Shown one piece after another: positions 2,683 through 23,493 of a DNA stretch of 64,000 nucleotides. The stretch spans positions 64,001 through 128,000 of the IMG/VR virus record IMGVR_UViG_3300014204_013734, one strand, 5' to 3'. Positions within the stretch are counted from its first letter, which is position 1; every line of letters begins with the position of its first letter. This DNA is from a virus. Its lineage: Duplodnaviria; Caudoviricetes. The notes beneath the pieces were generated by a model. That model worked only from the letters and a program-made list of their open reading frames with translations, did no database searches and was not told the origin of the DNA. A program made the translations under genes and the position numbers.

Positions 2683-3468
2683 TTATCCCTCATCCATTAC
2701 ACGTTGGTTGTATTCGTCAATCTCTTTTACGATACCTGTTCCTGTTCTCATAAGCCACGGCATATAAAGCATACCGTTAATCTTGCACGCCTTTAACACC
2801 GTGTCGTCAATGTCCTGACCTGATAACTGAAGGCTCTGATTTGACGCAAACATAAGCATACGCCCGCTACCGACACAAGGATCGTGAACGGTACGAACTG
2901 CCATATCCTTCCAATCCCCACCAACATCAAGCGTCTTCATTGTAATGCCAACCATCATTTTGCAGACATTCATGGGGGTAGGGTAGAACGCATTCGGATT
3001 CCAATGAGGTCCTTTGCCCTTCCCTTCGGCAATCAGATGTCCAAAGTAGTCGTAAGGATACTCAGTAAGCAATTGAAGTCCAAACTCCCGGCAAAATCTA
3101 TCCCTCGCCCCAGGCCAAGGTTCCACATTGCCGTGTCCGTCTTCAATATCAAGACCGAAAAGAATCTCGTCCATGATCCATTCAACAGACCGCCAAGGAC
3201 CGACATGCGATGAGCAAATGTCCACAAGCATGTTCAGGTGCTTCATGGTTTCGGGATTGGGGTAATCAAGGAAATCAAGCTGAGGAATAGGCGTGTCGGG
3301 GAGGTGGCCAAGTTCAAAGGTGTCACTCCACCACGCCCAACGCCCCTTAAGATGAAGGCCATCCAGGATCAACAGGTACGGAACAAGCCATCCTTTACTT
3401 CCAATGACAGGGGAAGTAAAGGAACTACCTACTTCCTCCAACTTGTCAAATTTATTGATGTCCGGCAT
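2683..3468 (-). CDS. N6-adenine methyltransferase-like protein (SAM-binding part only)
   Basis: FYPTPMNVCKMM, VHDPCVGSGRML (motif I) and LSGQDID; no NPPF/Y catalytic motif before the stop. Confidence 0.65.
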   Translation of the reverse strand: MPDINKFDKLEEVGSSFTSPVIGSKGWLVPYLLILDGLHLKGRWAWWSDTFELGHLPDTPIPQLDFLDYPNPETMKHLNMLVDICSSHVGPWRSVEWIMDEILFGLDIEDGHGNVEPWPGARDRFCREFGLQLLTEYPYDYFGHLIAEGKGKGPHWNPNAFYPTPMNVCKMMVGITMKTLDVGGDWKDMAVRTVHDPCVGSGRMLMFASNQSLQLSGQDIDDTVLKACKINGMLYMPWLMRTGTGIVKEIDEYNQRVMDEG

Positions 3469-15142: not shown

Positions 15143-15208
15143 CCTAAGCAATTAGCCCTATTAGGTTACCGTCCGGCACCAACGTGGAGGTTGCTTAGGT
15201 TGTCGGAT
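15143..15208 (-). ncRNA. HDV-like (theta-type) ribozyme 1, 3' of tRNA-Ser(CGA)
   Basis: P1 AUCCGAC/GCCGGAC (two A-C mismatches), P2 CCUAAGCA/UGCUUAGG, P3 ACC/GGU, L3 UCCACGUU, P1.1 GG, short P4, J4/2 GCUAAU. Confidence 0.8.
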
Positions 15209-15297
15209 CGGAAGGAGAGGGAATTGAACCCTCAAGGGAGTGTTAGTCCTCGTCCGGTTTCGAACCGGGTGCAGTCAGCCAATCTGCTTGTCCTTCC
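15209..15297 (-). tRNA. tRNA-Ser(CGA), no encoded CCA
   Basis: Acceptor GGAAGGA/UCCUUCC + G73; anticodon loop UU-CGA-AA; long variable arm. Confidence 0.9.
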
Positions 15298-15302
15298 AAA
15301 AA

Positions 15303-15379
15303 TGGTACGTCCGGCCAGGCTCGAACTGGCGATCCCCGGCTTCGGAGGCCGGTGCTCTATCCATCTGAGCTACGGACGC
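15303..15379 (-). tRNA. tRNA-Arg(CCG)
   Basis: CCGGC-CU-CCG-AA-GCCGG; T-loop UUCGAGC; ends ACCA. Confidence 0.93.
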
Positions 15380-15870
15380 GGAAATTTTGCCATCAAGGCT
15401 TTGGCCACGGGGTCTGGCACAAACTGCTGAAAGGGTCCCCCAAGGGCGGCAAGTTCCTTGACCATGGACGACGAAACTTCGGACACGGCCGGATCCGTAA
15501 CCAGCATGACCGTTTCAATGGAGGGCTTAATCCGTCGGTTGATAGAAGCCAAAGAAAACTCGACGGGAAAATCCTGAACGGGACGAAGCCCGCGGATCAT
15601 GGCACAAGCCCCAAGTTCGGCGGCAAAGTCAACCAGAAGCTTTCCTTCAGGTAAAGCTTCCAGACGCACCTTGGATGAAAACCCAACCGGGAGTGATTGT
15701 TGGATCAAGTCCAACCTTTCTTCCAAAGTGAAGGTCGCTTTCTTGGCGGAATTCTGTGCAATCACTACTACCAACCTATCAAAAAGTTCCGCTGCCCTGC
15801 TGATGATGTCCAAGTGGCCATTCGTGATCGGGTCAAAAGACCCTGCATAAATTGCAACACGTTCGGTCAT
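15370..15870 (-). CDS. coaD: phosphopantetheine adenylyltransferase
   Basis: AIYAGSFDPITNGHLDII, FTLEERL, IRGLR..DF..E, ETV, VSSSMVKELA. Confidence 0.93.
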   Translation of the reverse strand: MTERVAIYAGSFDPITNGHLDIISRAAELFDRLVVVIAQNSAKKATFTLEERLDLIQQSLPVGFSSKVRLEALPEGKLLVDFAAELGACAMIRGLRPVQDFPVEFSLASINRRIKPSIETVMLVTDPAVSEVSSSMVKELAALGGPFQQFVPDPVAKALMAKFPRP

Positions 15871-16022
15871 GAAGTGCCTCCTTGAAAGGACATACCCTTT
15901 TTCGGGGTAACTTGTTGAAGATGGCTTCATCTTCTTGTCTAAACTACCCGAAGCCCTCCAGTTCCAAGCCGTAAAATTCATGGTTTGGAAAACCATGACC
16001 CTTTTTTGAGGAGCTTTTGTCC

Positions 16023-17246
16023 ATGGCTTTGAAAAAGATCCCGGCCATACCCGCTGATTCCGCTTTGACCAAAGCCCTTAATTTGAAGGAAGCATCAGGA
16101 AAGGAAAAATGGGACTTTTCTTTCATTGATCTATTCGCGGGTATCGGAGGGTTCCGACTGGCCTTGGAATCCCTCGGCGGAAACTGCGTGTTTTCGTCGG
16201 AATGGGACAAGCAATCCCAGGACACCTACGAAAGGAACCACGGGGAACGACCTCAAGGGGACATCACGAAAATCGACCCGTTTTCCATCCCCGACCACGA
16301 CATCCTGACGGGCGGTTTCCCGTGCCAGACATTCTCCCTTGCCGGAATAACCAGATTGTCAAGTTTGGGCAGGGAACATGGCATGAGGGACACAACGAAG
16401 GGAACCTTATTTGGGTACACGAAGGAAATCATTACCGCAAAGCGTCCGAAGATGTTCATCCTAGAAAACGTCAAGAACCTAAAATTCCATGACGAAGGCA
16501 GGACCTTCAGGACCATCGTGGAACACCTACAGGGCCTGGACTATGAAGTGTCCTCTTCAATCCAAACTAGCGTCTGGTGGGTCCCGCAACACCGGGAACG
16601 TATGTTTATCGTAGGGTTTGATCTCCAACGGTTTGATCCGAAATCGGTTCAGGAAAACTGGGCCTTCCCCGACCCGCCGAAATTGGTAGATGGTCGATTA
16701 CCTGTGATGAAGGATATTATGGAAAAGAATCCGGATGAACGCTACCGGTTGACTGATCTTCAGTGGAGCACTCTTCAGAATCGTTTCAAGGGACACCAGA
16801 AAGGATCCTCAAAGCCCTGGGGATTCAGCTACGATTTGAATTCCGAAGAAACAATTGCCAAGACATTGATGGCAGACATTAAAGGAGGGTCCGCCCTGCT
16901 CATTCAAGACGACCCAACCAAAAATCCACGGAGACCAACCCCAAGAGAATGCGCCCGATTGATGGGATTTCCTGATACTTTTCAAACATTGCAAGCACAA
17001 AGACTTGTACAGAAACAGTTCGGAAACGCCGTCGTTCCCCCTCTGATCCGCCACATTGCTACGGCAATGCTGCGTGCTACAGACAACTTTCTGCCTAACC
17101 TCAATCCGATGCCAAAGGACACCATCCTAAACGTGCAAGTTGTAGCCCCGGAAAAGAAGACTGGAAAGAATAGGAAAATAGTACAAAAAGAACCGGAAGT
17201 CTGTTGTGGGTTGGAACAGTTGTTCAATGAAGATCAGAAAACCTGA
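16023..17246 (+). CDS. C5-cytosine DNA methyltransferase
   Basis: FIDLFAGIGGF, GDI, GGFPCQ, ENV, PQHRER, RECARLMGFP, QFGNAVV. Confidence 0.93.
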   Translation: MALKKIPAIPADSALTKALNLKEASGKEKWDFSFIDLFAGIGGFRLALESLGGNCVFSSEWDKQSQDTYERNHGERPQGDITKIDPFSIPDHDILTGGFPCQTFSLAGITRLSSLGREHGMRDTTKGTLFGYTKEIITAKRPKMFILENVKNLKFHDEGRTFRTIVEHLQGLDYEVSSSIQTSVWWVPQHRERMFIVGFDLQRFDPKSVQENWAFPDPPKLVDGRLPVMKDIMEKNPDERYRLTDLQWSTLQNRFKGHQKGSSKPWGFSYDLNSEETIAKTLMADIKGGSALLIQDDPTKNPRRPTPRECARLMGFPDTFQTLQAQRLVQKQFGNAVVPPLIRHIATAMLRATDNFLPNLNPMPKDTILNVQVVAPEKKTGKNRKIVQKEPEVCCGLEQLFNEDQKT

Positions 17247-17504
17247 CAACAGGAAATCAAACCTTCCGTCTCCGATAAAAAATGGGCATACTAGTTGTAT
17301 GCCCGGATTCACCGCTAATGGAAAGCAACTTCCGGAGATAGGTGCTGTGTTTTGGTGAGGTAAACACGGCACTTCATCCGAACCGTCCACCAGCCCTTCT
17401 GCCGCTACTGTGATAAACACAGAAGGTGCAGAATTAACCCTAGTGTAACCGCGGTTCTTCTTCAAGTCAAGAAGAAAATAAACGTTATCAAGGGTCGGGG
17501 TCAT
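17127..17504 (-). CDS. hypothetical protein
   Basis: Good RBS (AAGGAGG) and GGTAG motif upstream; 3' end overlaps the methyltransferase tail. Confidence 0.4.
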   Translation of the reverse strand: MTPTLDNVYFLLDLKKNRGYTRVNSAPSVFITVAAEGLVDGSDEVPCLPHQNTAPISGSCFPLAVNPGIQLVCPFFIGDGRFDFLLSGFLIFIEQLFQPTTDFRFFLYYFPILSSLLFRGYNLHV

Positions 17505-17559
17505 GAAACCCTCCTTCCCCATAACTACCGGGAAAGAAGGGTTTCCAAGCCGTTTGAAA

Positions 17560-17635
17560 TGGAGCTGACGGCGGTGATTGAAACCGCAACTTTCGCCCTA
17601 CCGAAGCGACGCTCTACCAACTGAGCTACGTCAGC
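17560..17635 (-). tRNA. tRNA-Thr(GGT), C33
   Basis: Acceptor GCUGACG/CGUCAGC + UCCA; anticodon loop UC-GGU-AG. Confidence 0.88.
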
Positions 17636-17641
17636 AAAAAA

Positions 17642-17716
17642 TGGAGCCTCGGCAGGAAATTGAATCCTGTTCTGCGGTTTACAGGACCGCCGCATCACCG
17701 ACAATGCTTCCGAGGC
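17642..17716 (-). tRNA. tRNA-Thr(TGT), C33
   Basis: Acceptor GCCUCGG/CCGAGGC + UCCA; GCGGU-CC-UGU-AA-ACCGC. Confidence 0.85.
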
Positions 17717-17720
17717 ATTT

Positions 17721-17803
17721 TCCAAGTAATTGGCCCTGCCCCTTTTCGGGGGGAATGCAGGTTGACATCCGACACCTCGTGAAGGTTACTTGGATCGTCG
17801 GAC
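17721..17803 (-). ncRNA. HDV-like (theta-type) ribozyme 2, 3' of tRNA-Thr(CGT)
   Basis: P1 GUCCGAC/GUCGGAU (G1-U wobble), P2 UCCAAGUA/UACUUGGA, P3 ACC/GGU, L3 UUCACGA, P4 CCUGC..GCAGG, J4/2 GCCAAU. Confidence 0.88.
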
Positions 17804-17875
17804 AGCTAGCAGAAAGACTTGAACTTTCAACCTTCGGTTTACGGAACCGTTGCTCTACCATTGAGCTATGCTAGC
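17804..17875 (-). tRNA. tRNA-Thr(CGT), C33, no encoded CCA
   Basis: Acceptor GCUAGCA/UGCUAGC + U73; anticodon loop UC-CGU-AA. Confidence 0.88.
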
Positions 17876-17880
17876 AAAAA

Positions 17881-17964
17881 TGGTACGAGGGGAGGAAATT
17901 GAATCCTCAAGGGTTTCCCCACACGGGTTTAAACCGTGCGCGTTTCCCATTCCGCCACCCTCGC
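17881..17964 (-). tRNA. tRNA-Leu(TAA)
   Basis: CACGG-UU-UAA-AC-CCGUG; long variable arm; ends ACCA. Confidence 0.9.
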
Positions 17965-17970
17965 ATAAAA

Positions 17971-18762
17971 TCAATGCAGAAAAGGTTTCCCAATCAAATC
18001 CGCCGGACCTTCCAGTTGGGGGACCTGATTGAAGTGGTTTTTCTTCAAGGCAGCCCGAACTTCTGTGATCACCTGGGAGGTTGGTTTTTCCAACCCGTCT
18101 GGCCGAAGCAGGGCATCCAGAAGGAATCGGGTCAAAGCCCCGTTTGGACGCTTCTTGAACACGGCATCCGCTGCGGTTTGGTCTGCCCGGCAACCTGAAA
18201 TCAAGGCAATGTTAGGGACATCCAAGGGATTCTTTTCCAACCCTTTGGATCGGACACCTTCAAAACGCCACCTGATGTCAAGCGGGGGAATGAGACGGCG
18301 CGGTTTGGACCCGCCAAATCCGGCCATGTCCCGGTCCAACCCTCCGCTGTGGCAGGAATCGGAAATCCACCATGCGGCAACACCAGGAGGGACCCGTTTG
18401 AAGATGGTGTTGAATTCCTTGTCCCGAATCATGTTGGAATCGGACCAATCAAAATTTTGACAACATACCACTTCGTCAAGTCCGTCAACTTCACCTTTCT
18501 TGTCCCGGGTCGGAACTTGAGCTCCATGTCCGCTGTACTGGAATAGGATGCGGTCACCAGGCTTCAACCCGTCAACAAGCCAGAAGAGTCGGTTCTTGAT
18601 TGTCGTAGCAGTGGCCCTGGAATCCGTCAAGAGACGGACAGCCGCCGGATCAAAGCCGCATTTCCCTGTGATGAACAACGCCATATCTTCAACATCGTTG
18701 AGACATCCGGCGAGCGGGGCTTCAGGATACGAATTTATTCCAACCAAGAGTGCCTTGTCCAT
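17971..18762 (-). CDS. metacaspase / caspase-family protease (peptidase C14)
   Basis: ALLVGINSY...LAGCLND, YSGHG (His), SDSCHSG (Cys), SGCRADQTAAD, GALT, QVPQL. Confidence 0.92.
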   Translation of the reverse strand: MDKALLVGINSYPEAPLAGCLNDVEDMALFITGKCGFDPAAVRLLTDSRATATTIKNRLFWLVDGLKPGDRILFQYSGHGAQVPTRDKKGEVDGLDEVVCCQNFDWSDSNMIRDKEFNTIFKRVPPGVAAWWISDSCHSGGLDRDMAGFGGSKPRRLIPPLDIRWRFEGVRSKGLEKNPLDVPNIALISGCRADQTAADAVFKKRPNGALTRFLLDALLRPDGLEKPTSQVITEVRAALKKNHFNQVPQLEGPADLIGKPFLH

Positions 18763-18822
18763 GGAAACCTCCTTTTACGGAGATGGGGTGATACATCCCA
18801 ATCCTGTAAAGGGGTTTCCATG
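18760..18822 (-). promoter_or_regulatory. hairpin occluding the metacaspase RBS and start codon
   Basis: mRNA CAUGGAAACCCCUUUAC pairs with GUAAAAGGAGGUUUCCAUG, which contains the SD and AUG. Confidence 0.7.
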
Positions 18823-18847
18823 AAAGGACAACCGGGGGATTGAAAAA

Positions 18848-18932
18848 TGGTGAAGGTGGGGGTGGTCGAAACCCCATGCCTTTCGGCAAAAGCTTTTGAG
18901 ACTTCCGCGTCTACCAGTTGCGCCACACCTTC
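18848..18932 (-). tRNA. tRNA-Leu(CAA)
   Basis: Anticodon loop CU-CAA-AA; variable arm GCC-GAAA-GGC; ends ACCA. Confidence 0.9.
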
Positions 18933-18939
18933 AGAAAAA

Positions 18940-19027
18940 TGGTGGACGGGGAGAGATTCGAACTCTCTCACCCACAAGGAGAACGGATTTACAGTCCGCT
19001 GCGCCTCACCATCTGCGCCGCCCGTCC
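18940..19027 (-). tRNA. tRNA-Tyr(GTA)
   Basis: GCGGA-CU-GUA-AA-UCCGU; long variable arm; ends ACCA. Confidence 0.92.
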
Positions 19028-19159
19028 ATGTATAGACTACCAGAATGGAATCCATCCCAAGCCGGAAAACCTTCGTTAGGAGAAATCTGGTGTACTAGGC
19101 CATCTTTGGAAAACCAATTTTCCGTTTATTGAACCCTTCCGATAAAAGGAGGTGTCCTT

Positions 19160-19837
19160 ATGATCCCACTGTTTACTCAAGAAGAATTTGATTCTGTGAA
19201 GTCCCGGCAAAAGTTACCCCTTCAATGTAAGCATTGTGGGAAAACCTTCCACAGAACCAAACATGATATTCAAATTGGTAACATAAGAAGAGGAACTATG
19301 GATTTTTGCAGCATTTCTTGTACATCCCGATATCATGCCGCTGGTCATCGTCTTAGTTTGACTTGTGAACAGTGTGGAAACCATTTCAGCAAGATTTTAT
19401 CTCAAGTCAAGGTAACAAAACATCATTTCTGTTCCAAATCCTGTGCGGCCAAGTATCGGAATTCTCACAAAACTACAGGTTTCCGTAGGTCAAAGTTAGA
19501 AGCTTGGTTGGAAACCCAACTAACATCCCTTCATCCTGAATTAGAATTTCATTTCAACAGGAAAGACACTATTGATTCCGAATTGGATATTTACATCCCT
19601 TCCCTTAAGTTGGCTTTTGAACTAAATGGGATTTTCCACTTTGAACCTATTTTTGGAACCCACAAGTTGAATCAAATCCAATCCAACGATCAAAGGAAAT
19701 TTTTGGCTTGCGCTGAAAGAGGAATCAGCCTTTGTATTTTGGATGTTTCTCACATCAAGTATTTTAAAGATAGGACTTCCAAACCCTTCCTTGACATTAT
19801 TGAACGTATTATTTCCCAAGTAAGGGCAGGACAGTAA
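19160..19837 (+). CDS. free-standing putative homing endonuclease (Zn-ribbon repeats + Vsr/DUF559-like PD-(D/E)XK domain), copy 1
   Basis: CKHCGK..FCSISC, CEQCG..FCSKSC, ELDIYIPSLKLAFELNGIFH, NDQRK..C...GI.L. Confidence 0.75.
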   Translation: MIPLFTQEEFDSVKSRQKLPLQCKHCGKTFHRTKHDIQIGNIRRGTMDFCSISCTSRYHAAGHRLSLTCEQCGNHFSKILSQVKVTKHHFCSKSCAAKYRNSHKTTGFRRSKLEAWLETQLTSLHPELEFHFNRKDTIDSELDIYIPSLKLAFELNGIFHFEPIFGTHKLNQIQSNDQRKFLACAERGISLCILDVSHIKYFKDRTSKPFLDIIERIISQVRAGQ

Positions 19838-19840
19838 AAA

Positions 19841-19916
19841 TGGTGCCTGAAGCTAGGATCGAACTAGCCACCTCGTGATTTTCAGTCACGCGCTCTACCA
19901 ACTGAGCTATCCAGGC
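19841..19916 (-). tRNA. tRNA-Phe(GAA)
   Basis: CGUGA-CU-GAA-AA-UCACG; ends ACCA. Confidence 0.93.
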
Positions 19917-19928
19917 ATTGTCCATTTT

Positions 19929-21005
19929 TCACTTCTTCCGTTTGACAGGTTTTTTGGCAGGTTTTTTGGTCCCTGATGTCTTGCCCTTAACCTGCTTCCG
20001 GGAAGATTCTTCAATGTGAAGGGCCTTGATTTTCGGTCCCAGTTCTTGAAGGATTTCTCTGGTCTTGCCTTCCTTTGTATAGGTTTCAGCAAGTGATGCC
20101 AACACCTTGTTCATTGGTCCGGTCGTGACGGGCATTGGGACGTCAAGAGTGACAGTCATCGTCTTCCCTTTCTTGTGTATCGTCAGACCTTCCAATTTCA
20201 CCGTTCCATCGCGGTCAAAGTGGTAAAGCATGGCCAAATCAAAGAAGCCCTCGGAGCCTTCCGCTCCGCCCGTTTGGCGAAGCCGATCTATCACCTTTGC
20301 CAGATTGTCTTTCAACCAGGATGCCGTTTCCGCATCAAGGTCTTCAAACTTCTGGCTTTTGTTGTAAGCTTCCATAACCGCATGGTGAATGTTTTTGGGA
20401 ACCCTTTCACCCCCATCTTGGTCGCCACTTCGTGCGGCTTCTCCCTCTTCTTTCCAACCCCCTTCTTCGTCCCTTTCCCCGTTGTCATAAAGGAAGGCTT
20501 CCCACAAGAAACGGTTGACCAAACCCATGAAATAGTCCCTGGGTGGAAAGTCCTTGAGGGCCTTAAATCCGCCAGATACATTGGATTCATCAAAATCCGC
20601 AATTTGTGTCCGTTTTTCAGGTGGAACCGCCCACGAAGTCTCGCTCCATTCCATATCGTCCAGATCACCCAAATAGTTCTGATAGTCCCGATCATTCAGC
20701 AGATCGTCCAGATCATCGTCCAGATCATTCTGATCAGTCTGCAAAGAATTATGTTGGTCTTCGGACGGAATAGGTTCCAGAATTGTGGGATGGGGACCCT
20801 TATCCGCATCCATGCCGAACGCTTTGAAAACCGCCTGCATTGTAGCCGGGTCTTCCTGATCACCCCAAAGGTTGCAAAGATCAATTTCGGTTGGGGTCTC
20901 CTGATCTTCTTTCGATTCTTGGGGTTCCTTTACAGGTTCAACTTTCTTCGGTTCCAGGTTGAAGTAGGAAACAACCCGATGCCAGATGTTCTTGATTTTG
21001 GTCAT
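19929..21005 (-). CDS. hypothetical protein (acidic core, basic C-terminal tail)
   Basis: 358-aa ORF with strong RBS AAAGGAGGT and upstream GGGGTATACT. Confidence 0.75.
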   Translation of the reverse strand: MTKIKNIWHRVVSYFNLEPKKVEPVKEPQESKEDQETPTEIDLCNLWGDQEDPATMQAVFKAFGMDADKGPHPTILEPIPSEDQHNSLQTDQNDLDDDLDDLLNDRDYQNYLGDLDDMEWSETSWAVPPEKRTQIADFDESNVSGGFKALKDFPPRDYFMGLVNRFLWEAFLYDNGERDEEGGWKEEGEAARSGDQDGGERVPKNIHHAVMEAYNKSQKFEDLDAETASWLKDNLAKVIDRLRQTGGAEGSEGFFDLAMLYHFDRDGTVKLEGLTIHKKGKTMTVTLDVPMPVTTGPMNKVLASLAETYTKEGKTREILQELGPKIKALHIEESSRKQVKGKTSGTKKPAKKPVKRKK

Positions 21006-21053
21006 AGTAGTGACCTCCTTTCCTGGAACAGTATACCCCGGAAACTAAAAAAC

Positions 21054-21128
21054 TGGCAGATGCCGGAGGAATCGGACCTCCCAGACCGTCGGATTTGGAG
21101 TCCAACGCGCTTTCCCAGAGCGGCATCC
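21054..21128 (-). tRNA. tRNA-Trp(CCA), atypical D/T arms
   Basis: GUUGGA-CU-CCA-AA-UCCGAC; acceptor GGAUGCC/GGCAUCU + GCCA; T-loop UCCGAUU. Confidence 0.8.
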
Positions 21129-21137
21129 GTGAAAAAT

Positions 21138-21160
21138 TGGCGGAAAAGGTGGGGATTGAA
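21138..21160 (-). pseudogene. 3' remnant of a tRNA (probably Ser-type)
   Basis: UUCAAUC-CCCAC-CUUUUCC-G-CCA (T-loop, T-stem 3' strand, acceptor 3' strand, G73, CCA); the 5' part is replaced by the endonuclease cassette. Confidence 0.7.
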
Positions 21161-21198
21161 TTTTTGATTTATGACTCCTTCCGATAGGAGGTGCCCCT

Positions 21199-21888
21199 AT
21201 GATTCCCTTGTTTACGCAAGAAGAATTTGAATCCACAAAATCCCGGCAATTACTGCCCCTGAGGTGTAAGCATTGTGGGAAAACTTTTCACAGCGAAAAA
21301 TGTGATATCCAAAGAGGACTTCTGAAACACAGTTCAAAAACCAAAGATTTTTGTAGTCTCTCCTGTTTGGGGGAACACCGATCCATAGGGCGTCGTCTTA
21401 GCTTGACTTGTGAACAGTGTGGAAAACCTGTCAGTAAAAGGCCATCTGAAATTAAGCAATCTAAGCATTATTTCTGTTCCAGTTCGTGTTCCGCAAAATA
21501 CCATAATTCCAGAAAACATACAGGTTACCGGAGATCAAAATTGGAAGTTTGGCTGGAAACCCAACTAATTTCCCTTCATCCTGATTTGGAAATCCATTTT
21601 AACCGAAAGGATACCATTAATTCCGAACTGGATATTTTTATCCCTTCCTTAAAACTGGCTTTTGAACTAAATGGAATCTTTCATTATGAACCCATCTTTG
21701 GAGCTAAACAATTTGGAAGAATTCAATCCAACGACAACCGGAAAATTCTTGCCTGTGCTGAAAAAGAAATTAGCCTTTGTATTTTGGATGTTTCTCACAT
21801 CAAGTATTTTAAAGATAGGACTTCTAAACCCTTCTTAGATATCATTGAACGGATTATTTCCCAAGCGATTAGCCCTGAAACCCCTTGA
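21199..21888 (+). CDS. free-standing putative homing endonuclease, copy 2
   Basis: Close paralogue of 19160-19837 (MIPLFTQEEF...ILDVSHIKYFKDRTSKPFLDIIERIISQ). Confidence 0.75.
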   Translation: MIPLFTQEEFESTKSRQLLPLRCKHCGKTFHSEKCDIQRGLLKHSSKTKDFCSLSCLGEHRSIGRRLSLTCEQCGKPVSKRPSEIKQSKHYFCSSSCSAKYHNSRKHTGYRRSKLEVWLETQLISLHPDLEIHFNRKDTINSELDIFIPSLKLAFELNGIFHYEPIFGAKQFGRIQSNDNRKILACAEKEISLCILDVSHIKYFKDRTSKPFLDIIERIISQAISPETP

Positions 21889-21946
21889 TAAGGGTTCTCA
21901 GGTTACCATCCGGTACCAACGTGGAGGTTGCTTAGGTTTGCCGGAT
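21860..21946 (-). ncRNA. HDV-like (theta-type) ribozyme 3, 3' of tRNA-Ser(GGA)
   Basis: P1 AUCCGG/CCGGAU, P2 CCUAAGC/GCUUGGG, P3 ACC/GGU, L3 UCCACGUU, GG, long P4, J4/2 GCUAAU. Confidence 0.85.
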
Positions 21947-22033
21947 CGGAAGGAGTGGGAATTCAACCCACGGACCCGAAAGGGTCACCCGCTTTCCAGA
22001 CGGGCGCGACGAAGCAGCATTCGCCTCCCTTCC
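21947..22033 (-). tRNA. tRNA-Ser(GGA), no encoded CCA
   Basis: CCCGU-CU-GGA-AA-GCGGG; long variable arm; acceptor GGAAGGG/UCCUUCC + G73. Confidence 0.85.
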
Positions 22034-22039
22034 ACAAAA

Positions 22040-22118
22040 TGGCGGGGCATGTTGCGGGTACTGCCCCCGCCCCTCCCCCAATCGCGAATCGGGGGCATGC
22101 TCTATACACTATCACCCC
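22040..22118 (-). ncRNA. non-canonical tRNA-like RNA with encoded CCA
   Basis: GGGG.../CCCC-G-CCA ends; D-like arm GUGU-AUAGA-GCAU; 7-bp arm CCCCCGA-UUCGCGA-UUGGGGG; T-like arm GCGGG-GGCAGUA-CCCGC. Confidence 0.6.
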
Positions 22119-22127
22119 ATAAAAGAT

Positions 22128-22214
22128 TGGTGCTGGAAGCCGAATTTGAATCGGCACGGACTTTCGTCCACAAGGTCCTTAGCCTTGCGCGGCTGCCAGT
22201 TACGCCATTCCAGC
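22128..22214 (-). tRNA. tRNA-Leu(AAG)
   Basis: CAAGG-CU-AAG-GA-CCUUG; variable arm GGAC-GAAA-GUCC; ends ACCA. Confidence 0.9.
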
Positions 22215-22222
22215 AAAAAAAT

Positions 22223-22307
22223 TGGCGGAAGAACAGGAAGTCGAATCCTGACAGGCATTGCCTGGACGGGTTAGCAACCCGCTCCGCTACCATTACGGCA
22301 TTCTTCC
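22223..22307 (-). tRNA. tRNA-Ser(GCT)
   Basis: GCGGG-UU-GCU-AA-CCCGU; long variable arm; ends GCCA. Confidence 0.92.
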
Positions 22308-22321
22308 ATTTTTGATTGTTT

Positions 22322-22394
22322 TCCAAGCGATTAGCCCTGTATAAGCTACAGGTTGACATCCGGCACTTCGTGAAAGTTGCTTGGGTCGTCGGAT
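22322..22394 (-). ncRNA. HDV-like (theta-type) ribozyme 4, 3' of tRNA-Leu(CAG)
   Basis: P1 AUCCGAC/GCCGGAU, P2 CCAAGC/GCUUGG, P3 ACU/AGU (covaries with ACC/GGU in the other copies), L3 UUCACGA, P4 CCUGUA..UACAGG, J4/2 GCUAAU. Confidence 0.85.
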
Positions 22395-22477
22395 TGGGAA
22401 CGGAGGGGGTCGAACCCTCACGGCTGTTAACCACTGGTTCCTGAAACCAGTGCGGCTCCCAGTTACGCCACGTTCCC
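22395..22477 (-). tRNA. tRNA-Leu(CAG), no encoded CCA
   Basis: Acceptor GGGAACG/CGUUCCC + A73; CUGGU-UU-CAG-GA-ACCAG. Confidence 0.9.
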
Positions 22478-22504
22478 GTAAAAAAACGTTGTTTCACTAT
22501 TCGG

Positions 22505-22517
22505 TTGTCAAAGAATC
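22505..22517 (-). promoter_or_regulatory. boxA-like antitermination site
   Basis: GATTCTTTGACAA about 27 nt before the first tRNA; resembles the rrn boxA (TGCTCTTTAACA). Confidence 0.55.
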
Positions 22518-22521
22518 CCGG

Positions 22522-22561
22522 AAAACTAAAAACCCCTCACGGCTTTCACCGGAGGGGTTTT
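22522..22561 (-). terminator. intrinsic terminator (attenuator) in the tRNA-array leader
   Basis: AAAACCCCUC-CGG-UGAAAG-CCG-U-GAGGGGUUUUU-AGUUUU. Confidence 0.85.
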
Positions 22562-22582
22562 CGTTGGGAGAAACATCATAGT

Positions 22583-22711
22583 TTACTGTTTCAACGTGAA
22601 CCCTCGGTGCCGGTTTAACGACCAGCTCGTAAGCTGGAAGGACAGATACAACCGGCCTGTAAAGGCCGTGTCTGTCAAACTGGCAGTAAAGGTAACTTCT
22701 AAATCGTCCAT
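22583..22711 (-). CDS. 42-aa leader peptide of the tRNA array (putative attenuator uORF)
   Basis: MDDLEVTFTASLTDTAFTGRLYLSFQLTSWSLNRHRGFTLKQ*; RBS GGAGG at 22717-22721; below the ORF-track cutoff; codons match the array anticodons. Confidence 0.85.
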   Translation of the reverse strand: MDDLEVTFTASLTDTAFTGRLYLSFQLTSWSLNRHRGFTLKQ

Positions 22712-22759
22712 GCGTTCCTCCAAAAACCCCTTACCCACATCTTTGTGGGTGACTCTTTC

Positions 22760-22788
22760 TTTTTACCCAGCTTCCTAAAAAATGTCAA
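22760..22788 (-). promoter_or_regulatory. sigma70-type promoter of the leader/tRNA array
   Basis: TTGACA - 17 nt - (GGG)TAAAAA, with an A/T-rich UP-like tract upstream. Confidence 0.7.
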
Positions 22789-22866: not shown

Positions 22867-23493
22867 ATGAAACAATCTTCGTTTGAAAAAGTAGCGTCCC
22901 GATGGTTGAAGAAGGCTTCAGCCCAAGAAGAACTTCAATGGGGGACTTCAAAGCTTGTAGAAGCCCTGGAAGCCATGGACGACACGATAACCGTGTGGAC
23001 GGCCCGAGGGCACAACCCGTCAGGGCGTGCCTATGAAGGGTATGAATCCCTAGTTGATACGTATGCTGAAATCAAAACGTCAGTCAAAGAAGTGTCCACT
23101 ATCGCAGCCCAACTGCGCCGCACTATCCAGGACCTCAAAAAAGTTCGGATCCAGAAAGTAGCTGTTCAACAAGGTTTTCAGATTGACAGAAAGACAAGAA
23201 ATGGGGTTTCCGACTGGTTTGCCAAAGTCGGTCTTGATGGCAACGGTTCATTCAAGAAACCGCAAGACGGTTACCGTAAGGCATTGGACACGCTTGAACA
23301 CTTTGGAATCGTGTTAGCAGATTCCGTTGATTCCTACAAATTCACTAGGGATGAAGGACGGATCACGGTAGACTTGGGGGTGCCCAACAAGAAACCGATG
23401 ATGCCTCCGATACCCGTTGACAATTCCATGCTTGTCCTGTCCTTTCACAAACGGTCGGAAGAAAATTTTGAAGTTCTGGCATACCTTTCATGA
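22867..23493 (+). CDS. hypothetical protein with KVASRW motif
   Basis: MKQSSFEKVASRWLKKAS...; RBS GGAGGT. Confidence 0.75.
   Translation: MKQSSFEKVASRWLKKASAQEELQWGTSKLVEALEAMDDTITVWTARGHNPSGRAYEGYESLVDTYAEIKTSVKEVSTIAAQLRRTIQDLKKVRIQKVAVQQGFQIDRKTRNGVSDWFAKVGLDGNGSFKKPQDGYRKALDTLEHFGIVLADSVDSYKFTRDEGRITVDLGVPNKKPMMPPIPVDNSMLVLSFHKRSEENFEVLAYLS

Follow-up and report, generated by a model that had tools for sequence, protein, structure and literature searches.

Leader-peptide attenuation is a textbook mechanism, known from the ilvGMEDA, thr, trp, his, leu and pheA leaders of enterobacteria, and in the pheM leader of E. coli pheST it is applied to the decoding machinery rather than to amino-acid synthesis, the leader peptide there sensing one amino acid and controlling phenylalanyl-tRNA synthetase. 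T-box riboswitches also sense tRNA status and act through a terminator/antiterminator switch, in their case by binding one uncharged tRNA directly via a specifier codon, without translation. To our knowledge, essentially nothing has been reported on how expression of phage tRNA genes is controlled. These genes are usually viewed as constitutive codon-usage patches and, lately, as a means of countering anticodon nucleases by acting as decoys or replacements (PMC10264068, PMC11555353, PMC11464382), and no description of leader-peptide or attenuation control of phage tRNA genes was found in the full-text literature collection searched. In rrn antitermination leaders, boxB-boxA-boxC elements act with NusB/E/A/G and SuhB (PMC4807359, PMC10250234). 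The locus described here, on the minus strand of a 64,000-nucleotide (nt) window (bases 64001-128000 of the 381,280-bp, 50.6% G+C virus contig IMGVR_UViG_3300014204_013734; unlabelled coordinates are window positions), is a short open reading frame (ORF) at the head of an array of 14 tRNA genes, and the cassette to which it belongs is probably a trp-style ribosome-mediated transcription attenuator that senses decoding of the codons served by that array.

The resemblance to the enterobacterial leaders lies in a short ORF led by a Shine-Dalgarno (SD) sequence and rich in product-relevant codons, an intrinsic terminator at a fixed short distance past the stop codon, and predicted alternative pairings of the 1:2, 2:3 and 3:4 type in which the 3' end of the leader is the candidate antiterminator. 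The phage-borne cassette differs in that it would regulate tRNAs and not biosynthetic enzymes, and in that its leader takes in up to 14 isoacceptors of seven amino acids, mostly with one to three codons each, whereas classical leaders carry runs for one to three amino acids; in addition, an rrn-type boxA lies downstream and the window adds a long-range helix that would sequester the SD. With pheST it has in common a concern with decoding, although pheST controls a synthetase and not tRNA genes. Unlike a T-box it contains an SD-led ORF, and when 14-24 kb was scanned with Rfam at E <= 1 no T-box riboswitch was found, the only hits being tRNA-clan genes and chance-level matches (E 0.076-0.53, all below the gathering score). 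With rrn leaders it shares a boxA-like 18-mer found upstream of 16S and 23S genes in many phyla, but in rrn operons no translated leader with an attenuator stands before the boxA.

The coordinates, strand and promoter, SD, ORF and terminator anatomy given in a preliminary description, made from the sequence alone, were all reproduced (Table 1), and ARAGORN confirmed the 14 array tRNAs and their anticodons. The -10 box of the promoter-like site, TAAAAA, lacks the final T; a second cassette of the same genome shares the CTTGACA -35 box along with the T-rich flank upstream of it, and the -35 box is present in all five related cassettes. A GGAGG motif serves the divergent neighbour gene too. Starting 25 nt past the stop codon, the terminator is a bulged, G+C-rich hairpin (-17.4 kcal/mol) followed by UUUUUAGUUUU. 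The first array tRNA, Leu-CAG at 22477, lies 105 nt beyond the end of the leader ORF and 138 nt beyond codons 20-32 (the core), in the same orientation, and the 14 co-oriented tRNAs extend down to 15208. No Pfam or Rfam family was matched in the leader region.

Codon content ties this leader to its array. Under a decoding rule in which G34 reads C and U and every other anticodon its exact match only, array tRNAs read 26 of 41 leader codons, and each of the 14 array anticodons finds a cognate codon there; the core presents 12 distinct array anticodons, one codon each, and TCA, CTA and CTC are absent from the leader, counts that agree throughout with the preliminary description. Leu, Ser, Thr, Phe, Tyr and Trp make up 59% of leader residues against 30% in the proteome (7 Leu, 7 Thr, 4 Ser and 4 Phe codons). 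When all six frames of the genome were scanned (762,000 13-codon windows), a coverage score of 12 was reached in the leader only; the four windows with a score of 11 overlap this one, and the best locus elsewhere reaches 10. Because the leader locus is top or tied-top at window lengths of 10, 13, 16, 20, 25 and 30 codons, the original choice of 13 codons is not what makes it exceptional. Set against 13-codon windows of the genome's coding sequences, a comparison that had been suggested for this leader, the score of 12 again stands apart, none of 100,395 in-frame windows from 241 crudely called genes exceeding 9. The signal exists at two levels, amino-acid composition and synonymous choice: with the peptide fixed and synonymous codons redrawn from phage usage (200,000 trials), a best window of at least 12 was obtained in 0.06% of trials (P = 0.0006), coverage of all 14 anticodons in 1.5% (P = 0.015) and at least 26 cognate codons in 4.8% (P = 0.048). 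The codon-array match of the leader is not due to chance.

The same genome provides a reciprocal case. The array had been taken to comprise every tRNA that the phage can replace, which does not hold, with 21-22 further tRNAs lying outside the window: 21 genes on the plus strand at genome 49.2-59.2 kb, and one non-canonical Asp-like tRNA missed by ARAGORN and added by Rfam (L001 3489-3562, genome 49489-49562, plus strand, 38.9 bits). The anticodon loop of the latter is CCGTCAA (GUC, Asp, with C33) and its D-arm is non-canonical; it would render four GAT codons of the second leader cognate. This second array is headed by a paralogous cassette of its own, cassette B (L001 2798-3200), which resembles the window's cassette A in the -35 region, in the untranslated region (UTR) directly before the SD and in the boxA element, while the two ORFs are dissimilar. 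Leader B is spelled in codons for the amino acids that array B serves: Gly, Pro, Ala, Val, Asn, Asp, His, Glu, Lys and Ile. Codons cognate to array A and to array B only number 26 and 5 in leader A, and 6 and 28 in leader B (Fisher p = 7.8e-8). Both arrays hold tRNAs for Ser and Arg, and for these two amino acids array-A codons account for 6 of 7 in leader A and array-B codons for 4 of 5 in leader B. A six-frame coverage scan for the whole 20-anticodon B set gave no outlier, this statistic being low-powered where the set spans most common amino acids. The way amino acids are divided among arrays and leaders provides a simple signature that can be computed when searching metagenomes for such operons.

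Relatives were reached through the divergent neighbour of the leader (22867-23493, plus strand), whose 208-aa product matches no Pfam family, has an invariant C-terminal FEVLAY motif and belongs to a small family; in distant relatives the gene stays beside the array head, with a Cpn60-like gene next. Through members of this family, tRNA arrays in synteny were located on four further contigs of uncultivated phages. The neighbour protein and the chaperonin as single queries in IMG/VR retrieved no relatives, a DNA pattern built from the conserved in-ORF hairpin returned only a contig already known, and a search of phage GenBank records for close relatives gave tRNA-level matches only. The phage sequence itself was found in landfill and groundwater metagenomes only, and three loci identical to the window (L114-L116) carry no comparative information and were not used as relatives. 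Each of the four relatives' cassettes has CTTGACA, an SD, an ORF of 31-33 codons, a terminator and a boxA-like TCTTTGACAA, and their arrays begin with Leu(CAG) and Ser(GCT), followed in no fixed order by more Leu, Ser, Phe, Tyr and Thr tRNAs, with Trp in three of the four. Their leader peptides are alignable yet diverged, the six amino acids named above making up 53-65% of residues versus 30% in the proteome, and equivalents of the in-ORF hairpin are retained in L121, L123 and L140.

The contig that carries L140 (G002) also has a B-type cassette (L063:5187-5345), heading a 34-tRNA array, and the A/B reciprocity is repeated there (p = 1.5e-6). Coverage of a leader's own array anticodons is 13/15 in G002-A, 15/17 in G001-A, 16/20 in G000-B and 23/28 in G002-B, so the earlier claim that the leader polls every tRNA stands for the window (14/14) and fails for the relatives. 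Sampling at the isoacceptor level, also proposed in the preliminary description, is borne out more widely. In the five leaders with fully visible arrays, more distinct anticodons than expected given the peptide are found in four (G002-A, p = 0.009; G001-A, p = 0.010; window, p = 0.016; G000-B, p = 0.019), the fifth, G002-B, giving p = 0.073; the Fisher-combined value is 1.7e-5, the A leaders among the five being homologous. The leader is also the six-frame maximum in 40 kb of G001 (at 13 and 20 codons) and of G002 (at 20 codons); at 13 codons the G002 leader scores 9 versus a top of 10.

An unrelated 59-kb viral contig, IMGVR_UViG_3300048772_000090, found through the boxA motif alone, shows the same design: a 32-codon ORF (L095:2267-2365, minus strand) with promoter and terminator has cognate codons for 11 of 11 downstream tRNA genes, and the Leu/Ser/Tyr/Cys block that precedes it is almost unrepresented. 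Separately, in the 260-kb IMGVR_UViG_3300017963_000190 (L071/L138), a 47-codon ORF with promoter and terminator stands before a Ser/Tyr/Thr/Gly tRNA block; it contains all 20 amino acids and may be a whole-repertoire leader.

Seven cassettes were compared for the geometry of the presumed switch, five of A type (window, L118, L121, L123, L140) and two of B type (L001, L063). In each of them 23-32 nt separate the stop codon from the 5' arm of the first hairpin downstream, and the final ~10 leader codons show complementarity to this arm (-13 to -21 kcal/mol), P being 0.0007-0.014 relative to random genome windows in five (L121, L123, L118 and both B cassettes). Each transcript was folded up to the terminator loop with a 27-nt ribosome footprint masked. 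With a ribosome anywhere in the core, the leader tail pairs with the arm in L121, L123 and L118 (0.80-0.97), and the arm is freed (0.35-0.64) once the ribosome occupies the last 7-10 codons. Ribosome-free folds of the full leader in the window, L121 and L140 pair the 5' half of the ORF with the tail, much as in the 1:2 pairing of a classical attenuator.

In the window, the tail peptide has diverged from the relatives, yet CACCGAGGG (22609-22601) retains complementarity to the arm. Codons 35-37 are able to pair with the terminator 5' arm, and the duplex of segment 2 (codons 32-37) with that arm is worth -14.4 to -15.5 kcal/mol (P = 0.036 versus random windows). When the ribosome-binding site (RBS) is masked, pairing of the arm stands at ~0.74 for A-site codons 2-32 and is much lower (~0.3) for codons 34-42; the limit of antitermination-competent stalls coincides with the end of the 12-isoacceptor core. 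A further 24-bp helix joins 22731-22708 (5'UTR, SD and AUG) with 22581-22553 at -32.8 kcal/mol, as good a value being found in 0 of 3000 random windows. It overlaps the CCCCU of the terminator arm and is absent from the four orthologues; as modelled, it would sequester the SD after one round and serve as a second antiterminator when the RBS is empty. Whole-leader folds are very stable in both cassettes (z = -5.6 for leader A, -7.4 for leader B).

The strong-SD ORF, the terminator 25 nt past the stop, the tail-arm pairing, the reciprocal paralogue and the four orthologues together support the leader-peptide attenuator matched to its array that was first put forward from the sequence, and suggest how it might operate. 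A host-type RNA polymerase would initiate at the TTGACA promoter and a ribosome would load at GGAGG-AUG. Codons 7-32 are almost wholly array-cognate; this ribosome would test 12 isoacceptors within 13 codons, and slow decoding of any such codon would hold it upstream of codon 33. Segment 2 would then be free to pair with the terminator 5' arm, and the exposed 5'UTR and SD could additionally capture the post-stop segment; either pairing would pre-empt the terminator and let the polymerase continue. With fast decoding, the ribosome would cover segment 2 while the terminator forms, and transcription would stop at 22532-22522. The read-through transcript carries an rrn-type boxA, which would probably recruit Nus factors and so let transcription of the 7-kb array, most of it untranslated, run to completion. 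The net effect would be feedback in which the tRNA set is made only when capacity to read array codons is short, whether through a codon mismatch between host and phage, a loss of tRNAs in the course of infection or the action of defence nucleases. If this is correct, it would be the first feedback control of tRNA genes by attenuation to be described, extending a textbook mechanism to a new product class.

The boxA-like element bears on the last of these steps. The genome contains the 16-mer TTTGACAACYGAATAG at just two sites, one before each tRNA array, and the 18-mer TCTTTGACAAYTGAATAG is present in at least 120 bacterial genome contigs of many phyla, with a 16S or 23S 5'-end motif 68-326 nt downstream in 42 of 125 copies among the matches listed. 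Since the 18-mer lies upstream of 16S or 23S in many bacteria, the element is, judged by these matches, the boxA region of rrn leaders and spacers. Many IMG/VR contigs, too, carry this motif within their tRNA arrays or before them. By analogy with rrn operons and the lambda nut sites, it should make polymerases past the attenuator termination-resistant across the 7-kb array. The preliminary description had allowed that internal promoters may also drive the distal tRNAs; promoter-like motifs are no commoner there than in shuffled sequence (6 sites in 14.5-23.5 kb versus 7.3 expected from shuffles), and for this reason the candidate boxA appears the better explanation of distal tRNA transcription. 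In most cassettes (L001 3164-3200; L121, L123, L140, L118) a second strong terminator-like hairpin lies between the boxA and the first tRNA, none being present in the window; it may be a checkpoint passed only by boxA-modified polymerase, or a processing stem.

Several findings weigh against an attenuator of this kind. The orthologous leaders are homologous and their peptides partly conserved (an L-T/S-S-W-S motif), and the shared composition therefore does not represent five independent events. The relatives leave some array tRNAs unsampled, Leu-UAG never being represented, and single tRNA gains and losses (Ser-UGA, Glu-CUC, Leu-UAG, Trp) are not consistently tracked codon for codon among them, contrary to what the preliminary description had looked for. 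With only one to three leader codons per tRNA, sensitivity would be weak relative to the codon runs of classical leaders, and some core codons are constrained by the in-ORF hairpin as well. The window antiterminator is the weakest of the seven (P = 0.12 for the short arm, 0.036 with two more bases) and lies five codons farther from the stop, so that in the simple mask model it is exposed again when a ribosome stands exactly on the stop codon (P(arm paired) = 0.64). No excess over controls was seen when terminator and antiterminator were compared for column-wise covariation in five sequences; bulges shift between orthologues, which throws the alignment out of register. Lastly, the terminator always wins at equilibrium, under ribosome masks too, and any switch must then be kinetic, as in trp.

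A different signal might be read by the same hardware, namely amino-acid supply, through charging of Leu, Thr, Ser and Phe tRNAs, or the general status of translation, and not single isoacceptors. The frequent codons for these four amino acids do resemble multivalent leaders such as ilvGMEDA and thr, and the SD/post-stop helix would give read-through whenever no ribosome loads, making the cassette a global translation sensor. However, extra tRNA does not relieve amino-acid starvation, which would make poor logic of such control; codon choice, conditional on the peptide, spreads across isoacceptors beyond expectation; and the Ser and Arg codons of each leader follow its own array. We consider this explanation unlikely.

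Less probable still is that the ORF is a gene for a small functional protein, complete with a terminator, the array being transcribed independently and the match in composition incidental or inherited. The partly conserved L-T/S-S-W-S core would suit a protein, as would the strength of the terminator and the perfect TTGACA within the boxA-like element; but no -10 element is present 16-18 nt after that TTGACA, and the motif is that of bacterial rrn leaders and spacers. Two non-homologous leaders in one genome match their own arrays, the unrelated L095 does likewise, and the bias extends to the synonymous level. Tail-terminator complementarity and spacing are, moreover, conserved while the tail peptide changes, and the region matches no Pfam or Rfam family. 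The least tenable proposal takes the cassette for a structural, non-coding leader on which the tRNA precursor would be processed or folded, much as on the rrn leader-trailer helices, with the ORF as a by-product; the very stable folds and the boxA that follows accord with it, but SD, ATG and stop stand at a fixed terminator distance in seven cassettes with differing ORFs, the codon signal is frame-specific and a genome-wide maximum, and an RNA-only platform does not predict reciprocal A/B amino-acid content. All three explanations are disfavoured by that reciprocity, by the synonymous bias and by the conserved stop-to-terminator geometry.

For an attenuator that senses decoding, the source of the shortage could be of several kinds. 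A trigger by anticodon nucleases, as first suggested for this leader, is conjectural, and plain supply-and-demand feedback on decoding fits equally well, as do codon-supply mismatch and simple autoregulation of tRNA dosage. The one-codon-per-isoacceptor layout is compatible with a nuclease trigger, since one hungry codon brings the ribosome to a stall only when its tRNA is nearly absent. It is a tentative and rather doubtful extension that the leader is a sentinel for tRNA-targeting defence, in which cleavage or depletion of any of ~14 host isoacceptors by an anticodon nuclease would, through a stall at that one codon, induce a nuclease-resistant phage set and a second sentinel would guard the other 21-22, an OR-gate at isoacceptor level amounting to a viral 'guard' circuit. 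If decoding is sensed as proposed, giant phages would monitor the host translation apparatus codon by codon, and the cassette would constitute a compact natural sensor of individual tRNA availability, usable as a reporter.

Table 1. Features of the window cassette, of its orthologues and of cassette B. MFE, minimum free energy.
Feature	Sequence	Position	Strand	Details
Promoter-like site	window	22760-22788	-	TTGACA 22788-22783, 17-nt spacer, TAAAAA 22765-22760; read from sequence
5'UTR hairpin	window	22733-22750	-	7 bp, loop AAAG; MFE folds
Shine-Dalgarno GGAGG	window	22717-22721	-	5 nt to ATG; read from sequence
Leader ORF	window	22583-22711	-	42 sense codons + TAA; ATG at 22711, TAA 22585-22583
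Core, codons 20-32	window	22616-22654	-	12 different array isoacceptors in 13 codons
In-ORF hairpin	window	22622-22637	-	CCAGCU-UACG-AGCUGG; MFE
Segment 1, codons 7-13	window	22674-22693	-	MFE helices; partner of segment 2 without ribosome
Segment 2, codons 32-37	window	22600-22619	-	Core CACCGAGGG at 22609-22601; candidate antiterminator strand
Post-stop anti-SD segment	window	22553-22581	-	Pairs with 5'UTR, SD, AUG (22731-22708); overlaps CCCCU of terminator
Intrinsic terminator	window	22522-22557	-	Stem-loop 22557-22533, U-tract 22532-22522
rrn-type boxA-like element	window	22497-22515	-	TTCTTTGACAACCGAATAG
tRNA array, putatively regulated	window	15208-22477	-	14 tRNA genes + interspersed protein genes; ARAGORN, Rfam; Pfam for proteins
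Orthologous leader ORF	L118	9711-9806	-	
Orthologous leader ORF	L121	3073-3174	-	
Orthologous leader ORF	L123	9699-9794	-	Same as L125
Orthologous leader ORF	L140	1610-1708	-	
Cassette B promoter	L001	2798-2826		Then GAGG, 8 nt, ATG
Cassette B leader ORF	L001	2859-3005		48 codons
Cassette B hairpin	L001	3040-3068		
Cassette B boxA-like element	L001	3131-3146		
Cassette B strong terminator	L001	3164-3200		tRNA-His next at 3211

A third cassette was considered ahead of tRNA-Ile in array B and rejected, the strong hairpin there following a 653-aa gene without a leader. The ENA contig k141_2421636 (L114), of 444,386 bp, is identical in phage sequence over the compared 10 kb; the 381-kb record may be incomplete, or the 444-kb contig a concatemer. 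Protein genes within the window array include those for a C14 caspase-like peptidase (17971-18762, minus strand), a cytidylyltransferase-like protein (15370-15996, minus strand) and a C5 DNA methylase (16017-17246, plus strand), and two zf-FCS paralogues, ~80% identical, lie on the opposite strand (19160-19837 and 21199-21888).

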